A stretch of DNA of 64,000 nt from positions 832,001-896,000 of the forward strand of contig CAVWPA010000003.1 in NCBI GenBank assembly GCA_963756875.1. Reading direction: 5' to 3'. The notes beneath the pieces were generated by a model that saw only the letters and a list, made by a program, of their open reading frames with translations, had not been told where the DNA came from and searched no databases. Shown piece by piece: positions 28,549 to 43,815 of this stretch. Source of the DNA: an uncultured Verrucomicrobiae bacterium (lineage in GTDB: Bacteria > Verrucomicrobiota > Verrucomicrobiia > Chthoniobacterales > UBA10450). The position numbers and the translations under genes were made by a program. Within the stretch, counting starts at the first letter, position 1; each line of letters starts with the position of its first letter.

Positions 28549-29964
28549 TCACTCTGCGCCTCGCGGGGTGACTTTTTGTCCATCCTTTGTGTCGCGCACT
28601 TCCCATCCCAGCGCATTCAATCTCTTGCGCAATTCGTCGCTTTTCTTGAAATCCTTTGCAAGCCTGGCTTGCATACGTGCTTCTGCCAATGCGACGATTT
28701 CATCGGGAATCCTGCTCTTCGTAGTAGTGAGGTCTAGTACACGATCAATGCGTGCCCACCACTGCAGCCACCGATGAGCGGCGGAAGCGGTCAAGGTGCC
28801 TGCGTCAAGCGCCTGATTGCTCTCGCGAATTGCATCGTAGAGAACCGCGAGAGCTGCAGAAATATTTAAATCATCGTCGAGCGCTTCTTCGAATTTTCCC
28901 GTCGGCGGTTGGACCGCCGATGGTTCAGTTTTTGCACTTTCTTGCTGTGACGTTGCTTCCAATCGCTCCAGCCAATCGTCGATCCGGCCCAACGATTCCC
29001 TGGCCTCTTTCATTCCGTCCCAGGTGAAATTGAGCTGTGTCCGGTAATGGACGCGCAGCAGCGCGTAACGCAGTTCGCGGCCGGTGTAGCCTTTTCCCAG
29101 AATATCCGGGACCGTATAAAAATTGCCCAGCGATTTGGACATCTTTTGACCATCGACCAAAAGGTGCGCGCAATGCAGCCAGTAGCGCACGAACTGTTTG
29201 CCGGTGCAGCTTTCGCTTTGCGCGATCTCCGCTTCGTGGTGCGGGAAAATGTTGTCCACGCCGCCGCAATGGATGTCGATTTGATCGCCGAGCAGCGCGG
29301 TCGCCATCGCGCTGCACTCGATGTGCCAGCCAGGACGACCGCGTCCCCATGGACTTTCCCATGCCACCTTGCCGTCTTCCTCGTCCCACGCCTTCCAGAG
29401 CGCAAAATCGCCGATATGCTCCTTGTCGTACTCGTCGTGCTTGACGCGCCCTGTCGATTGCAGCTGCGTGAGATCGAAGTGTGCGAGTTTTCCGTAGTCG
29501 GGAAATTTGTTGATTCGAAAATAGACTGACTTGTCGTCGGCTTGGTAAGCGAGTTCACGCGAGATCAGCTCGCCGATCATCAAGATCATTCTGTCGATGT
29601 AACGCTGGTCGGTCGCGGCGGGGAATTCATCCGCGCGTTCGATGCGCAAGGCTTTGAGGTCATCAAAGAACGCCTGTTTGAATTGCTCGGTGAATTTTGC
29701 GAGCGGAACGTCCGCCTCGCGTGCGCTGCGGATGGTCTTGTCGTCCACGTCGGTGATGTTCATGACGCGGTGCACTTTGTAGCCGCGCAGTTCCAGATGA
29801 CGCTGTAAAAGGTCTTCGAAGATGTAGGCGCGAAAATTTCCGATGTGGGCGCGGCTGTAAACGGTCGGGCCGCAAGTGTACATGTCGACCTCGCGGCCGG
29901 CGGGATCGCGAGGCCGAAACTCTTCGAGCTCGCGCGAGTAGGTGTTAAAAAATCGAAGAGCCAT
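28549..29964 (-). CDS. cysS: Cysteine--tRNA ligase
   Basis: MYTCGPTVY, HIGN, GRPGWHIECS, KMSKS. Confidence 0.98.
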   Translation of the reverse strand: MALRFFNTYSRELEEFRPRDPAGREVDMYTCGPTVYSRAHIGNFRAYIFEDLLQRHLELRGYKVHRVMNITDVDDKTIRSAREADVPLAKFTEQFKQAFFDDLKALRIERADEFPAATDQRYIDRMILMIGELISRELAYQADDKSVYFRINKFPDYGKLAHFDLTQLQSTGRVKHDEYDKEHIGDFALWKAWDEEDGKVAWESPWGRGRPGWHIECSAMATALLGDQIDIHCGGVDNIFPHHEAEIAQSESCTGKQFVRYWLHCAHLLVDGQKMSKSLGNFYTVPDILGKGYTGRELRYALLRVHYRTQLNFTWDGMKEARESLGRIDDWLERLEATSQQESAKTEPSAVQPPTGKFEEALDDDLNISAALAVLYDAIRESNQALDAGTLTASAAHRWLQWWARIDRVLDLTTTKSRIPDEIVALAEARMQARLAKDFKKSDELRKRLNALGWEVRDTKDGQKVTPRGAE

Positions 29965-29967
29965 TCT

Positions 29968-30058
29968 TAGTGGAGTGTTGGAGTAGTTGGAGCAGTGGGG
30001 TAGTGAAAGGATCGAGCGGCGAAGCGCAATCATCACTCCATTGCTCCGCTATTCCATT
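29968..30058. repeat. Inverted degenerate 8-mer tandem arrays
   Basis: TAGTGGAG-TGTTGGAG-TAGTTGGAG-CAGTGGGG facing ATCACTCC-ATTGCTCC-GCTATTCC. Confidence 0.7.
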
Positions 30059-30525
30059 TCGACAGTCGCCACCGCCATCGCGGCGATCCCTTCATTCCGG
30101 CCGATCGCTCCGAGGCGCTCATTTGTTGTCGCCTTGATGCTGATGTTTGATTCAGAGATTCCGAGCGCGCCACCAATTGTCTTTTGCATGGCTGAAATGT
30201 GCGGCGCAATCTTTGGCGCTTCTGCAATGATTGTCGCATCAATATTGACCACGCTCGCCTTTTTCTCCGCGAGCAATTTCGTTACGCGCTTGAGAATTTC
30301 GACGCTGCTGATGCCGCGAATCGATTGATCGGTGTTTGGAAAGTGCTGGCCAATGTCGCCCGCGCCGATCGCTCCCAGAAGAGCGTCTGCGATTGCGTGC
30401 AACAGTACATCCGCATCCGAATGTCCCACCAGACCGCGCGAGTGTGGGATCGTTACCCCGCCGAGAATCAATTGTCGATTCTCGGCGAGCCGATGAACGT
30501 CGTAACCTATGCCGGTTCGAAACAT
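30049..30525 (-). CDS. ispF: 2-C-methyl-D-erythritol 2,4-cyclodiphosphate synthase
   Basis: RTGIGYDVH, GHSDADVLLHA, GDIGQHFP, KATTNE. Confidence 0.97.
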   Translation of the reverse strand: MFRTGIGYDVHRLAENRQLILGGVTIPHSRGLVGHSDADVLLHAIADALLGAIGAGDIGQHFPNTDQSIRGISSVEILKRVTKLLAEKKASVVNIDATIIAEAPKIAPHISAMQKTIGGALGISESNISIKATTNERLGAIGRNEGIAAMAVATVEME

Positions 30526-30530
30526 GGAAA

Positions 30531-30693
30531 AAATGACGAATGACCCGCCTTCGCCAGGCTTCGGCGCGGCAGGCGAATAACGAATGACGAATGAATGACA
30601 AAATCCGAATGCCAAAAAGGAATTCTCGATCGCTCGTTCGTCATTTGAGCATTCGTGCTTCCTTCGTGCTTCGTCATTCGAATTTCGTCATTC
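30531..30693. repeat. Inverted GAATGAC/GTCATTC heptamer arrays with nested hairpin element (30544-30574)
   Basis: AAATGAC GAATGAC [CCGCCTTCGCCAGGCTTCGGCGCGGCAGGC] GAATAAC GAATGAC ... GTGCTTC GTCATTC GAATTTC GTCATTC. Confidence 0.8.
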
Positions 30694-30700
30694 ATTGTCG

Positions 30701-31447
30701 TCAGAGCTTGAGATCGATCACACCGTTCGACGCGACAATACTGTATTTATCTTTCATCTTGTTCTGTGGCCGCAGATCCACGATGCCGCCCGCAGTTTCC
30801 ACCAGGATCCAGCCGGCGGCGATGTCCCACAAACTGATTCCGCGTTCGATATAAGCGTCGAAACGTCCGCACGCCACGTAGGCCATATCGAGCGCAGCGC
30901 TGCCCATCACGCGGCATTTGCGCACGCGATGAATCATTTCCTGTAGCAACGGAAGGTTTGAATCGATCATCTCTCCGGTCTTGGAAAGCCCGACCGAGAT
31001 CACCGCTTCAGCCGGATCGGCTCGCTCGCTGACATGAAAGGTTTGCCCATTTAAGCGCGGTTTTTCTCCTTTTTGTCCACTCCACATTTCTTCGCGCATC
31101 GGATCGTAAATTACGCCCACGATAATTTCACCCTGGAGCCGCAGCGCGATGGAAACGCAAAAATGAGGAATCCGGTAAAAATAATTTACGGTTCCATCCA
31201 GCGGATCGACCACCCACTGGTGTTCGCTTGACTGGTCGCCCACGATTCCTTCTTCGCCGTAAAGTGCGTGCTCGGGGAATTGTTTTAGAAGCGAGCGCGT
31301 GATGAGCTCCTGAGCTTTCACATCGAGATCGAGTTTGATATCGTGTGCCTCGGCAGCGTTGACACGCAGCGGGCGGTGAAAATTTTGCCGGAGCAGGTCG
31401 CCGGCCGCGCGAGCTGCCTTCTCTGCCGCGTTGAGATAGTGCTTCAT
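30701..31447 (-). CDS. suhB: Inositol monophosphatase family protein
   Basis: GEE, WVVDPLDGTVNY, GSAALD, WDIAAG. Confidence 0.9.
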   Translation of the reverse strand: MKHYLNAAEKAARAAGDLLRQNFHRPLRVNAAEAHDIKLDLDVKAQELITRSLLKQFPEHALYGEEGIVGDQSSEHQWVVDPLDGTVNYFYRIPHFCVSIALRLQGEIIVGVIYDPMREEMWSGQKGEKPRLNGQTFHVSERADPAEAVISVGLSKTGEMIDSNLPLLQEMIHRVRKCRVMGSAALDMAYVACGRFDAYIERGISLWDIAAGWILVETAGGIVDLRPQNKMKDKYSIVASNGVIDLKL

Positions 31448-31610: not shown

Positions 31611-31646
31611 AAAAAAAACCGGGAGGAAAATAAATTCTCCTCCCGG
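31611..31646 (-). terminator. Intrinsic terminator
   Basis: 9-bp stem CCGGGAGGA/TCCTCCCGG followed by U8 on the minus strand. Confidence 0.85.
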
Positions 31647-31707
31647 GTTGAAGTTAGGGATTATGACTCTGAAAGAGAATTCAGAGTCGTGATCGAGCGT
31701 TGGGCCC

Positions 31708-31767
31708 TTAATGCCTCTTTCTCTTCGCTGATTTTTTCTTTGCTGCTTTCTTTCTTTTCTTTGCCAT
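31708..31767 (-). CDS. 19-aa highly basic peptide MAKKRKKAAKKKSAKRKRH
   Basis: ATG...TAA read by hand; preceded by AAAGGGGGGAATAGTCG (SD-like); followed by a hairpin and the terminator. Confidence 0.7.
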   Translation of the reverse strand: MAKKRKKAAKKKSAKRKRH

Positions 31768-31849
31768 CGACTATTCCCCCCTTTCAATCCGCAATTGCGG
31801 GGATGTGTGAAGAGTTGGGAATGACTTCACTTAATGCGTTCAGTAATCG

Positions 31850-32503
31850 TCACAAATTGTTTGTCAAACATTTTTCGCGCATGTTTGTAAAAATTTTTAT
31901 GAGCTCGCGCGCGATCTTTTTTTTGGGCGCGCGTGAAATTCTTTTGTTTTCACCGCTTCGGAAGAAAATCGTAACTTCATTTTCGTCGCTTTCCATTCCG
32001 GAATTAGCACGGCTCACATCGTTGGCCACAATCGCGTCCAAATTTTTTGCGCGGAGTTTTTGCCGGGCGTTTTTCGTAACGCGGTTGGTTTCCGCGGCAA
32101 AACCGACGACGAGAAATTGCCGGTCGTGTGTTGGCAGCGACGCGAGAATGTCGCGAGTGGGGACCAGGCGAAGTGAAAAGCTTTTTTTGCGTTTCTTGAT
32201 TTTGAGCCGCGAAGTCTTCGCCGGTTTGTAATCTGCGACTGCCGCACACATGACAAGCACATCGCAGCCGTGCAGGTGTCGATGCACCGCCTCGAGCATT
32301 TCGCCGCTTGTGGAAATGGAAATGAACCGCGCCTCGCGCGGGGGAGGCAGACAGGCGGGCCCGGAAATCAACGTCACCTTGTGTCCGGCTTCGATCGCCG
32401 CCGCGGCGATTGCGTATCCCATTTTCCCCGACGAGCGATTGCTGATGTAGCGAACGGGATCGATCGGCTCGCGCGTTGGCCCGGCCGTGATGAGAAATCT
32501 CAC
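31850..32503 (-). CDS. coaB: Phosphopantothenate--cysteine ligase (stand-alone CoaB)
   Basis: LITAGPTREPIDPVRYISNRSSGKMG, AAVADY, VGFAAET; GTGA overlap with coaC stop. Confidence 0.93.
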   Translation of the reverse strand: MRFLITAGPTREPIDPVRYISNRSSGKMGYAIAAAAIEAGHKVTLISGPACLPPPREARFISISTSGEMLEAVHRHLHGCDVLVMCAAVADYKPAKTSRLKIKKRKKSFSLRLVPTRDILASLPTHDRQFLVVGFAAETNRVTKNARQKLRAKNLDAIVANDVSRANSGMESDENEVTIFFRSGENKRISRAPKKKIARELIKIFTNMREKCLTNNL

Positions 32504-33123
32504 GCGATCAAATTTTCCTGGCGCGCCAGAAGAAATTCCGCGCGGAAGGCGATGTCGTCCACTTTCCAAAGACGGCCGAGGCCTTCGTAACCACATGCCA
32601 GCATCCCTTCTTCCGGTCCGATGAATTCAACTCCGCGCGACTTTAATTTTTCCACGTTCCCGGCCGTGGCGGGGTGCGACCACATTTTTCCGTTCATGGC
32701 CGGTGCGAGCAGAATTGGTGCGCGCGTCGCCAGTGCGATGGCGGCGAGCGGATGACTGGCGAGCCCGTGAGCGAGTTCCGCGATGATGTTCGCCGTGGCC
32801 GGCGCGATCAAGAGAAGATTCGCGCGGTCCGCCAGATTGATATGGCCCGGCCGCCAATTTTCCTTTTCGTCGAAAAAGCTCGTCATCACCGGATTCTTGG
32901 AAAGCGTTTGCAGCGTCAACGGCGTGATGAACTCGGCCGCGTCCTGCGTCATCACCACAAAAATCTCGTGGCCCTGTTTGACGAGCAGGCTGGCCAGCTC
33001 GGCGGACTTGTATGCGGCAATAGACCCGGTGACCCCAAGCACAATCGTTCTCGCGCCTCCGCGCAATCGCACGACCTTGCGCGCGCTTGTTTTTTCAGTT
33101 CGCAGCTTTGGATTTTTGGCCAT
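32500..33123 (-). CDS. coaC: Phosphopantothenoylcysteine decarboxylase (stand-alone CoaC)
   Basis: GVTGSIAAYK, IAPATAN, APAMN, LACGYEGLGRL. Confidence 0.93.
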   Translation of the reverse strand: MAKNPKLRTEKTSARKVVRLRGGARTIVLGVTGSIAAYKSAELASLLVKQGHEIFVVMTQDAAEFITPLTLQTLSKNPVMTSFFDEKENWRPGHINLADRANLLLIAPATANIIAELAHGLASHPLAAIALATRAPILLAPAMNGKMWSHPATAGNVEKLKSRGVEFIGPEEGMLACGYEGLGRLWKVDDIAFRAEFLLARQENLIA

Positions 33124-43479: not shown

Positions 43480-43815
43480 ATGGCAAAGCTTACCAAACGC
43501 GACATTGTCGTCTCGATCAGCAACCAAACCGGGATGGTCCAGCACCAGGTCTTCGACGTCGTTCAGCGCACGCTCGATAAGATCACAGATAGTCTGGCTA
43601 ACAACGTGGCAGTGGAGCTCCGAAATTTCGGCGTTTTTCAGCCGCGCCTGACCAAGCCGCGCGTTGGACGCAACCCGAACCAGCCGGGCAGCAGTTTCGT
43701 GATTCCGCCGCGAGCAACGGTGAAGTTCAAGGCCGGAAAAGTCATGCGCCAGCGTGTTGAAAAGCTTTCTCGGGAGCTAAAGGAAGTAGCGGAGCGGACG
43801 GCCGGCAGCCGATAA
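43480..43815 (+). CDS. HU/IHF family DNA-binding protein
   Basis: LTKRDIV, VELRNFGVF, RVGRNP, VKFKAGK. Confidence 0.93.
   Translation: MAKLTKRDIVVSISNQTGMVQHQVFDVVQRTLDKITDSLANNVAVELRNFGVFQPRLTKPRVGRNPNQPGSSFVIPPRATVKFKAGKVMRQRVEKLSRELKEVAERTAGSR

Follow-up and report, generated by a model that had tools for sequence, protein, structure and literature searches.

Hc2 (HctB; PF07382), a protein of the PVC superphylum, is made up of Lys/Ala(/Pro/Val) low-complexity repeats without a folded domain and is tied to the chlamydial developmental cycle. Hc2 is 165–237 aa long, and its size varies by the number of lysine-rich pentamers, as described in PMC2848022. AKKA/PAKKA-type repeats are also found in AlgP of Pseudomonas, in an H1-like protein of Burkholderiales (NCBIfam NF038053) and in the PAKKA tails of mycobacterial Ku, HupB and HBHA, in each case within long proteins or as tails on folded domains. 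According to PMC3553676, PMC10665949 and PMC9239181, such repeats bind polyanions, and AlgP, an H1-like protein of K/P/A repeats, sets the spacing of polyphosphate granules (PMC9239181). In eukaryotes, the C-terminal tail of histone H1 and the protamines offer a parallel to the mechanism proposed below, that of an unstructured polycation neutralising the charge of DNA, although neither is evolutionarily linked to the peptide described here, and protamines are Arg-rich and tied to a particular developmental stage.

A second set of comparators is ribosomal. bS22, bL37, Thx and eL41 are 19–35 aa long, extremely basic and escape standard gene calling; they are of fixed length, have position-specific sequences and are seated in rRNA pockets.

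The DNA analysed here (the window) is a stretch of 64,000 nucleotides from an uncultured Verrucomicrobiae bacterium of the order Chthoniobacterales, and it carries a 19-codon gene on the minus strand encoding the peptide MAKKRKKAAKKKSAKRKRH. The reading we favour, at a probability of roughly 0.55, is a micro-gene dedicated to a nucleoid-binding polycation and equipped with strong expression signals; its product would be a miniaturised Hc2/H1-like protein. The unit and its neighbours are made up of the following features.

31850–32596, minus strand: coaB, the upstream neighbour (Pfam DFP, E 7e-71), outside the unit
31862–31867, minus strand: −35-like TTGACA within the last codons of coaB, preceded by an A-tract; candidate promoter
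31840–31845, minus strand: weak candidate −10 element TACTGA at a 16-nt spacer, conserved in its TA only
31807–31830, minus strand: 5' hairpin 1, GUGAAG/CUUCAC, from sequence and fold
31789–31800, minus strand: 5' hairpin 2, CCGCAATTGCGG (CCGC-AAUU-GCGG), immediately upstream of the Shine-Dalgarno (SD) site
31776–31784, minus strand: SD site AAAGGGGGG, 8 nt ahead of the ATG, within the invariant block AUUGAAAGGGGGGA
31767–31708, minus strand: coding sequence of MAKKRKKAAKKKSAKRKRH, ATG at 31767, TAA at 31710–31708, 19 codons plus stop
31665–31688, minus strand: 3'-UTR hairpin GACUCUGA(A) / (U)UCAGAGUC, from sequence and fold
31611–31646, minus strand: intrinsic terminator CCGGGAGGAGAA/UUUUCCUCCCGG, a stem at 31646–31619 of 12 pairs (7 G-C) followed by U8
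30701–31447, minus strand: suhB, the downstream neighbour (Pfam Inositol_P), context
30049–30615: ispF, after suhB (Pfam YgbB), context
28549–30036: cysS, after ispF (Pfam tRNA-synt_1e), context

The original prediction had described the ORF with 12 of its 19 residues K/R, the SD-like site, the TTGACA in the 3' end of coaB, the two 5' hairpins, the 3' hairpin and the terminator, and all of these are present in the sequence at the positions it gave. Besides the 12 K/R residues, MAKKRKKAAKKKSAKRKRH contains four A and one each of S, H and M; acidic and hydrophobic residues are absent from this oligo-lysine/arginine product of 18–19 residues. Removal of the Met, suggested by the Ala or Pro at position 2 in 117 of 117 loci, probably leaves a mature form of 18 aa. 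The TTGACA is found at all 19 family loci that extend that far, and TTGAC[AG] also lies upstream of remoter orthologues. A simple sigma-70 consensus scan made no promoter call because the −10 element is weak; the pair may serve as the promoter of the unit. Hairpin 1 probably coincides with the 5' end of the mRNA or lies close to it. Both the unit and its terminator occur once in the host genome. The predicted fold of the 225-nt transcript has an energy of −64.2 kcal/mol (z −3.18), and none of 200 shuffled sequences is as stable. An alternative 80-aa ORF starting at TTG (31787–31545), which runs through the terminator, was rejected: it is not conserved, its counterparts in 20 relatives ranging from 0 to 84 aa.

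Comparison of related loci argues that the micro-ORF is a real protein-coding gene under purifying selection. A start codon and an in-frame Lys/Ala(/Pro) ORF of 16–68 aa are kept in all 117 complete related loci. In 20 family loci recovered by BLAST, independently of the SD motif, the SD site, the ATG and a K/A ORF of 17–34 aa are present without exception and the C-terminal His is found in 19, while a motif search of public genomes gave 119 matches, 97 of them with a Lys/Ala ORF of 16–68 aa; one of the others is cut by a contig end and the remaining 21 are chance matches in which the rest of the unit is missing, and those of identified origin come from other phyla. Judged against a frame-independent anchor, CAYTAR, the reading frame is intact in 71 of the 74 unique units, across 15 distinct lengths. 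Of eight groups of equal ORF length, seven have a pN/pS of 0.05–0.34 and one has 0.60, the same Arg is written as AGA or CGC in loci with identical peptides, and purifying selection extends to positions other than Lys. Within the family there is also position-specific conservation of an AA doublet, of S/T/A at position 13 and of the C-terminal His, which, with the invariant leader, hints at a partner or a control more specific than bulk charge.

The RNA is conserved alongside the peptide, with the whole 271-nt unit retained in 23 of the 24 other genomes of the family. The stem of hairpin 2 is invariant in 61 sequences, and in a 69-sequence alignment that includes distant orthologues, and that was fitted to the covariance model, 99.6% of cells are paired and three of the four pairs are compensated (UCGC/GCGA, CUGC/GCAG and CCUC/GAGG), a result matched by none of 500 shuffles. 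A hairpin occupies the position of hairpin 1 in most individual folds of 103 unique upstream regions, and inspection by eye, with no formal count, shows GUGAAG/CUUCAC replaced by GUGAAC/GUUCAC in many relatives. The 3' hairpin has compensatory double changes at eight of eight pairs among 36 relatives. Within the family the terminator stem hardly varies, one of its ten pairs showing a double change, and the terminators of distant orthologues retain a 5' arm rich in purines (GGGAG..) whose partners covary. In the minimum free energy fold the SD block also pairs at long range with the 3' UTR (UUGAA/UUCAA and GGGGG/UCCCU); this pairing was rejected, as the Y-Y variation in the leader is, by eye, uncompensated in relatives. 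The proposal that this is a real, self-contained and unannotated micro-gene is thus borne out, and the alignment of relatives that the original prediction had called for shows conservation of frame, of ribosome-binding site (20 of 20) and of stem covariation alike.

Three readings place the function in the RNA. That the RNA itself is the main product, a structured sRNA of ~220 nt or a dual-function RNA in which the ORF is secondary, is decidedly improbable: three conserved hairpins with a terminator and a size and layout like those of dual-function sRNAs speak for it, as does the fact that within the family the terminator and the preceding stretch AACUUCAACCC are better conserved than the coding sequence, but AACUUCAACCC is not conserved in the order's other families, the peptide is clearly under selection, and Rfam 15 includes no family that matches at its gathering score, the best being LhrC with 27.2 bits (E 0.25) where 110 are required. 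The original prediction had offered a leader-peptide attenuator for suhB-ispF-cysS as an alternative; in such a reading the lysine codons would govern terminator read-through into these genes. suhB does lie directly downstream on the same strand with the terminator in between, and in Chthoniobacter-type relatives it starts 84–109 nt past the ORF stop and 20–40 nt past the U-tract, so that read-through probably feeds suhB there. Against attenuation, ORF length (16–68 aa) and the distance from stop to terminator vary freely, selection is not confined to the lysine positions, the consensus fold of 36 3' regions consists of two independent helices without an alternative antiterminator pairing, and the lone complementarity in the window (3' hairpin loop, UUCUCUU/AGGAGAA) is, by eye, absent in relatives; moreover, 165 non-conserved nucleotides separate the terminator from suhB in the host genome, and suhB, ispF and cysS are not lysine or arginine genes. 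We consequently regard attenuation as very improbable. The functional transcript is almost certainly not a plus-strand antisense RNA, which had been suggested because, in the window taken by itself, one extra G.U pair would lengthen the 31660–31693 stem on that strand; in the minus-strand RNA of the 36 relatives the two helices contain 66 G.U/U.G cells, while just 10 A.C/C.A cells would become G.U on the plus strand, and the SD site, ATG, ORF and U-tract all belong to the minus strand.

The SD site stands out from its genomic background. Among 2017 host ORFs of at least 200 aa, an SD 4-mer occurs at −18 to −4 in 12.9%, against 10.9% in a within-CDS control, figures that are rough as the first ATG of each ORF was taken as its start; this crude survey fits the earlier remark that most genes in the window lack an obvious SD. 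The duplex predicted between AAAGGGGGG and the anti-SD, at −11.2 kcal/mol, ranks in the top 0.4% of the 2017 long ORFs.

Searched with a covariance model of the leader, 131 of 151 genomes assigned to Chthoniobacterales by record title contain the unit, with at least one match in each of 16 families; the model has no match in the order's two genomes of 0.9 Mb and 99% completeness, where diverged copies may have been missed. Outside the order, five of nine class-level matches are genuine, with ORFs of 15–38 aa, and four are false. By record title, the host family includes Candidatus Udaeobacter, a group with streamlined genomes that ranks with the most abundant bacteria of soil. ORF length is 16–68 aa in the order, 15–97 aa among leader-defined orthologues and 15–120 aa across the class; the orthologues are built from AKKA/PAKK units and grade continuously from 15 to 97 aa by gain and loss of repeats. 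Exact look-up of 20 orthologues (23–97 aa) in a collection of 15 billion proteins found none present, and since even the 97-aa forms are missing, this absence says little about annotation. In the accessible portions of published work on the verrucomicrobial nucleoid, H1-like proteins and small proteins, we found no description of such a gene.

Kinship with Hc2-type proteins is seen in the longer members of this series. When 19 positional orthologues of 24–97 aa were scanned, 12 of 20 scans, representing 11 orthologues of 38–81 aa, matched the HC2 profile PF07382 at E ≤ 1; such matches are seen among the longer positional orthologues (58–97 aa). Scores rise roughly with length and reach 40.9 bits for L155 (66 aa), 35.2 for L159, 29.4 for L106, 27.3 for L152 and 23.1 for L156, others being lower or without a match, so that one of the 19 passes the Pfam gathering score of 40 bits. 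The long orthologues also match NCBIfam histone-H1-like models, including NF038053, below threshold. A homology search with the 66-aa orthologue gave just five matches and says little; the one named match, a Pontiella 'DUF2934 domain-containing protein', carries PF07382. The window peptide, lengthened for the scan to 20 aa by the in-frame codon ahead of it, has no match to PF07382 and is too short to reach 40 bits; NCBIfam and Pfam profiles likewise do not match the 19-aa form, whose length precludes a meaningful score. Its composition is of the HC2 type all the same, a Lys/Ala-rich repeat without acidic or aromatic residues. We take MAKKRKKAAKKKSAKRKRH to be a miniaturised member of a verrucomicrobial Lys/Ala/Pro low-complexity family of 15 to ~100 aa, of the Hc2/H1-tail type, although similarity of the HC2 kind is low-complexity similarity and can arise by convergence, which for such sequences is indistinguishable from homology.

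Variation in length by repeat number is shared with Hc2 (PMC2848022), which differs from the 19-aa peptide in its far greater size. The window peptide differs from AlgP, Ku, HupB and HBHA in being free-standing, in having only one to three repeat units and in possessing a conserved, dedicated mRNA architecture. We know of no developmental cycle of the chlamydial type in the hosts of this gene. The host genome, which is 88% complete, contains one HU gene and no Hc1 homologue. The idea that the peptide replaces polyamines was rejected, a spermidine-synthase-like gene being present in the genome.

Binding by polycations is not peculiar to DNA: RNA, ribosomes and polyphosphate are equally ready partners, which tells against our preferred reading. 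A role at RNA or the ribosome, whether as an accessory ribosomal micro-protein in the manner of bS22, bL37, Thx and eL41 or as a general RNA chaperone or counter-ion, seems to us rather unlikely. In its favour are the tiny size and strong basicity of the peptide, its constant place ahead of suhB, and a strong SD behind an invariant, structured leader, a combination also found in autoregulated ribosomal-protein operons. Like bS22 and bL37 (see PMC6133939), the peptide is missed by gene callers. The orthologues of 15 to ~100 aa misfit a fixed rRNA pocket, and the near-constant length and cross-lineage positional conservation expected of the bS22/bL37 type were not found; the roughly six-fold length variation of the family sets it apart from the tiny ribosomal proteins and, being so labile, aligns it with Hc2. 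In addition, no NCBIfam model matches at E ≤ 10, though the library includes the bS22 model NF047430, a separate bS22-like ORF is present in the genome (PF08213, 20.5 bits, cut-off 23), and the leader model did not recover the unit from the two small genomes of the order noted above. Of the original suggestion of a histone-H1/protamine-like or ribosome-associated protein, the former half has gained from the length gradation and the HC2 matches of the long orthologues, and the latter has become less likely. Organisation of another polyanion, above all of polyphosphate granules as by AlgP, is improbable; the composition resembles that of AlgP, but neither the sequence nor the genes around it give any sign of a polyphosphate link.

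The genomic setting is kept across the order, the usual site of the unit being after coaC/coaB and before suhB-ispF, with ispF two genes downstream of the peptide gene. In E. coli, SuhB is part of the rRNA antitermination complex, a link that counts against the nucleoid-binding reading. Methylerythritol cyclodiphosphate (MEcPP), the product of IspF, reportedly frees DNA of the chlamydial protein Hc1 and also acts on H-NS of E. coli (PMC11192765, PMC11582573). In some families ispF can be transcribed solely by read-through of the peptide-gene terminator or from a promoter inside the unit. A chlamydia-like nucleoid switch in free-living Verrucomicrobia can be imagined, of which the peptide would be one half, coating DNA until MEcPP stripped it off; we consider such a switch quite improbable, and likewise the broader idea that micro-genes of this type constitute a widespread, unannotated class of bacterial 'protamines'. 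Outside the order, 18 class-level loci include seven with K-rich ORFs, none of which has suhB or ispF within ~3.5 kb, whereas gmk-coaC lies upstream of the K-rich ORF in two of the seven (G244, G284), and the partner conserved beyond the order is thus coaC and not ispF.

In our preferred reading, that of a nucleoid-binding polycation, the micro-gene would be transcribed from its own promoter inside the 3' end of coaB and terminated separately, giving an mRNA built for high and stable output through its 5' stem-loop, covarying 3' hairpin and strong terminator. The conserved hairpin would leave the SD accessible, an unusually strong one for a genome in which such sites are little used. The peptide would act without a fold, binding DNA phosphates electrostatically, and the resulting neutralisation of charge would compact the nucleoid in the way of Hc2, the histone H1 tail or a protamine.

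If so, MAKKRKKAAKKKSAKRKRH would represent a natural minimal unit of the bacterial histone-H1-like proteins, and an 18-mer would be enough to study what their repeats bind. Its invariant leader, set in a genome that makes little use of SD sites, provides a handle on translation initiation in Verrucomicrobia. A 19-codon gene that is invisible to gene callers and kept throughout an order implies that annotated proteomes miss conserved components, which are probably abundant.

The micro-gene, a 19-codon ORF, lies on the same strand as yicC, gmk, coaC and coaB upstream and suhB, ispF and cysS downstream, and forms the centre of a compact unit whose elements, in window coordinates, all lie exactly where the original prediction placed them.

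Elements of the micro-gene unit
31867-31862, minus strand: TTGACA box, within the final coaB codons
31830-31807, minus strand: hairpin 1, GUGAAG...CUUCAC
31800-31789, minus strand: hairpin 2, CCGC-AAUU-GCGG
31784-31776, minus strand: SD, within AUUGAAAGGGGGGAAU
31767, minus strand: ATG start codon
31710-31708, minus strand: TAA stop codon ending the 19 codons for peptide MAKKRKKAAKKKSAKRKRH
31688-31665, minus strand: 9-bp 3' hairpin
31646-31619, minus strand: terminator, a 12-bp G+C-rich stem-loop followed by eight U

Because the −10 element is poor, a consensus promoter scan called none at the micro-gene, and we therefore infer its promoter from conservation only. The final codons of coaB (..K C L T N N L *; 31850-31875, minus strand) are also the A-tract and TTGACA of this presumed promoter, and since the stretch is kept at the nucleotide level in 19/19 family loci it is a dual-use sequence. 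coaBC is usually fused; here coaC (flavoprotein) and coaB (DFP) (31850-33123, minus strand) are separate ORFs in different frames, overlapping by ~97 nt.

In a BLAST search of 40 relatives, the 271-nt unit was matched in 23 of the 24 other genomes of the same family and in one of the 16 from the order's other families; one matching row comes from an unpublished genome (G007) used nowhere else. The 20 family loci fetched (L001-L020) align at all three hairpins (two 5', one 3'), at the block GAAAGGGGGG and the ATG, and at the terminator, as they do at the TTGACA box in all 19 that extend that far, and every locus encodes a Lys/Ala peptide of 17-34 aa, with a C-terminal His in 19. One of these, L020 (from the unpublished genome G002), also contributes a row to later alignments and counts; the public sequence L072 is identical to it, and the conclusions are independent of L020. 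Searched for as an exact pattern in public genomes, the leader motif matched at least 119 stretches (L021-L139); among the matches listed, a Lys/Ala/Pro ORF of 16-68 aa is complete in 97, one is a further true unit ended by a contig edge, and 21 are chance matches lacking the other unit parts, those with titles seen belonging to other phyla. Because the leader motif served to pick out these loci, its invariance among them is by construction, and the leader is tested only by L001-L020 and the covariance model matches. Some loci represent one species twice, giving 105-109 unique units.

Frame-breaking indels, which the original prediction named as evidence against a gene, occur in no genuine unit. 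An open frame is itself little proof, because T makes up just 5.7% of the stretch and 103 of 117 units are open in the +1 frame as well; two tests independent of openness were therefore used. The first takes the distance between the ATG and CAYTAR, an anchor that does not depend on frame: across 15 different lengths, this distance is in frame for 71 of 74 unique units, and the other three, with implausible distances, probably reflect stray matches to the anchor. Within equal-length groups pN/pS is 0.05-0.34, rising to 0.60 in the most diverged group, ratios that are descriptive and not P-values since pairs of relatives are non-independent. Four loci encode an identical 19-mer despite at least seven synonymous differences, including AGA versus CGC for one Arg. 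Set beside these tests, a purely non-coding RNA is an unlikely product of the unit. An overlapping 80-aa TTG ORF (31787-31545) was considered and rejected, as it is not conserved.

The 225-nt RNA folds into exactly the four helices (−64.2 kcal/mol, z −3.18), with none of 200 shuffles as good. Covariation, proposed earlier as a check on the stems, is present: the 3' hairpin carries compensatory double changes in 8/8 pairs (36 relatives), and hairpin 2, in 69 sequences aligned by fitting to the model, has 99.6% of cells paired and three of four pairs compensated, equalled by 0/500 shuffles. Hairpin 2 is invariant in 61 leaders and reads UCGC/GCGA, CUGC/GCAG or CCUC/GAGG in distant orthologues; hairpin 1, variable in sequence and loop, forms in most folds of 103 unique upstream regions. 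The suggested antisense RNA is unlikely: read as minus strand, the same 36 relatives give 66 G.U cells versus 10 A.C cells, which places the structured RNA on the minus strand. The terminator stem is near-invariant within the family (a double change in 1/10 pairs, 36 relatives), where its conservation exceeds that of the coding sequence, and in other families it changes sequence with covariation. In this stem (31619-31646, minus strand) and in the orthologous terminators of L021-L159, the 5' arm is always purine-rich (GGGAGGAGAA, GGGAGAAGC, GGGGGAAGCGC and others) and includes an SD-like GGAGG, the CCUCC of the 3' arm being an anti-SD mimic. A crude genome-wide test agrees with the remark that most genes lack an obvious SD (an SD before 12.9% of long ORFs vs 10.9% in a within-CDS control, almost no enrichment), and it ranked the micro-gene SD among the top 0.4% for duplex energy.

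A covariance model built from hairpin 2, the SD and the first codons matched 131 of 151 genomes of the order, at least once in each of 16 families, and did not find the unit in the order's two 0.9-Mb genomes. Weak matches within the order are also real, their products being repeat proteins of 22-97 aa. In a class-wide sample, nine genomes outside the order matched (E<=0.01); on inspection five are real, with the same layout and ORFs of 15, 27, 29, 36 and 38 aa, and four are not. The unit is single-copy in the window's genome and almost always so among order genomes with model matches. A few assemblies hold two copies with different peptides (e.g. 33 and 31 aa), which may be paralogues or stem from strains mixed within one bin: L022 and L056 lie on two contigs of a single MAG, G009 has copies on contigs C174 and C18, and G025, G040 and G085 have two model matches each. 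In one orthologue (L149, G037:C5) the product is a long AKPKAKVT-repeat protein of at least 80 aa, whose middle reads N.

Among 117 loci, coaB lies upstream and suhB downstream in 68, coaB only in 29, suhB only in 12 and neither in eight, most shortfalls being loci with short flanks; ispF is two genes downstream across the order. In Chthoniobacter-type genomes the upstream gene is coaC, no coaB was seen in 1.5 kb of flank, and just 84-109 nt separate the ORF stop from the start of suhB; there, transcription of suhB has to come from read-through of the terminator or from a promoter within the unit. At L073 the orthologue (59 aa, more Thr/Pro-rich) is inverted relative to coaC, suhB and ispF, which shows the unit to be movable as a module. 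Beyond the order, gmk-coaC still precedes two orthologues, and suhB/ispF is near none of the orthologues in the fetched loci.

The predicted histone-H1-like kinship is seen in profile matches of the longer relatives; the 19-aa peptide itself matched no NCBIfam or Pfam profile. Its positional orthologues grade into one another in length, and the longer members of this continuous series match Pfam HC2 (PF07382, chlamydial histone H1-like nucleoprotein), a 66-mer at 40.9 bits (cut-off 40) and others at 35.2, 29.4, 27.3 and 23.1, the matches being weaker or absent under about 55 aa; NCBIfam H1-like models score them below threshold. HC2-like frames occur widely in the class (37/151 genomes at E<=0.01, six above the cut-off). 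Such low-complexity matches show the same kind of protein without proving common descent. In the literature searched, no gene of this sort is described from Verrucomicrobia.

The window's genome has one ordinary HU gene (window 43480-43815, plus strand; 111 aa, without a lysine-rich tail), the sole HU-family gene detected, 12 kb from the micro-gene; a spermidine-synthase-like gene is present and Hc1 was not found. Outside the window lies a second basic ORF of unannotated size (G000:C2:94519-94623, minus strand; L178:220-324), of 34 aa and 56% K+R. Its matches to the bS22 family are sub-threshold (Pfam COX24_C 20.5 bits, cut-off 23; NCBIfam ribo_bS22 11.8, cut-off 34), and it is probably a verrucomicrobial bS22 homologue.

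Of the original guess of a nucleoid- or ribosome-associated peptide, the ribosomal half fared poorly: binding to the ribosome or RNA sits badly with six-fold length variation and with the separate bS22-like ORF, and appears improbable. A role as a classical lysine attenuator is unlikely. A link to MEcPP, the IspF product, is a speculative and very doubtful lead; passages of PMC11192765 and PMC11582573 report that MEcPP frees chlamydial Hc1 from DNA and binds E. coli H-NS, and the lead is rated low because the ispF linkage does not extend to other orders.

The peptide, with a charge of about +12, cannot fold alone, and resembles in composition Hc2, AlgP and the PAKKA tails of mycobacterial Ku and HBHA, which bind DNA or other polyanions (for AlgP and the PAKKA-type repeats, PMC3553676, PMC10665949 and PMC9239181). 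Because studied proteins of like composition bind in this way, the reading we favour, at slightly better than even odds (roughly 55%), is that the micro-gene encodes an unfolded polycation that would coat and thereby compact the nucleoid, and that would be made from an mRNA whose architecture favours stability and efficient initiation.
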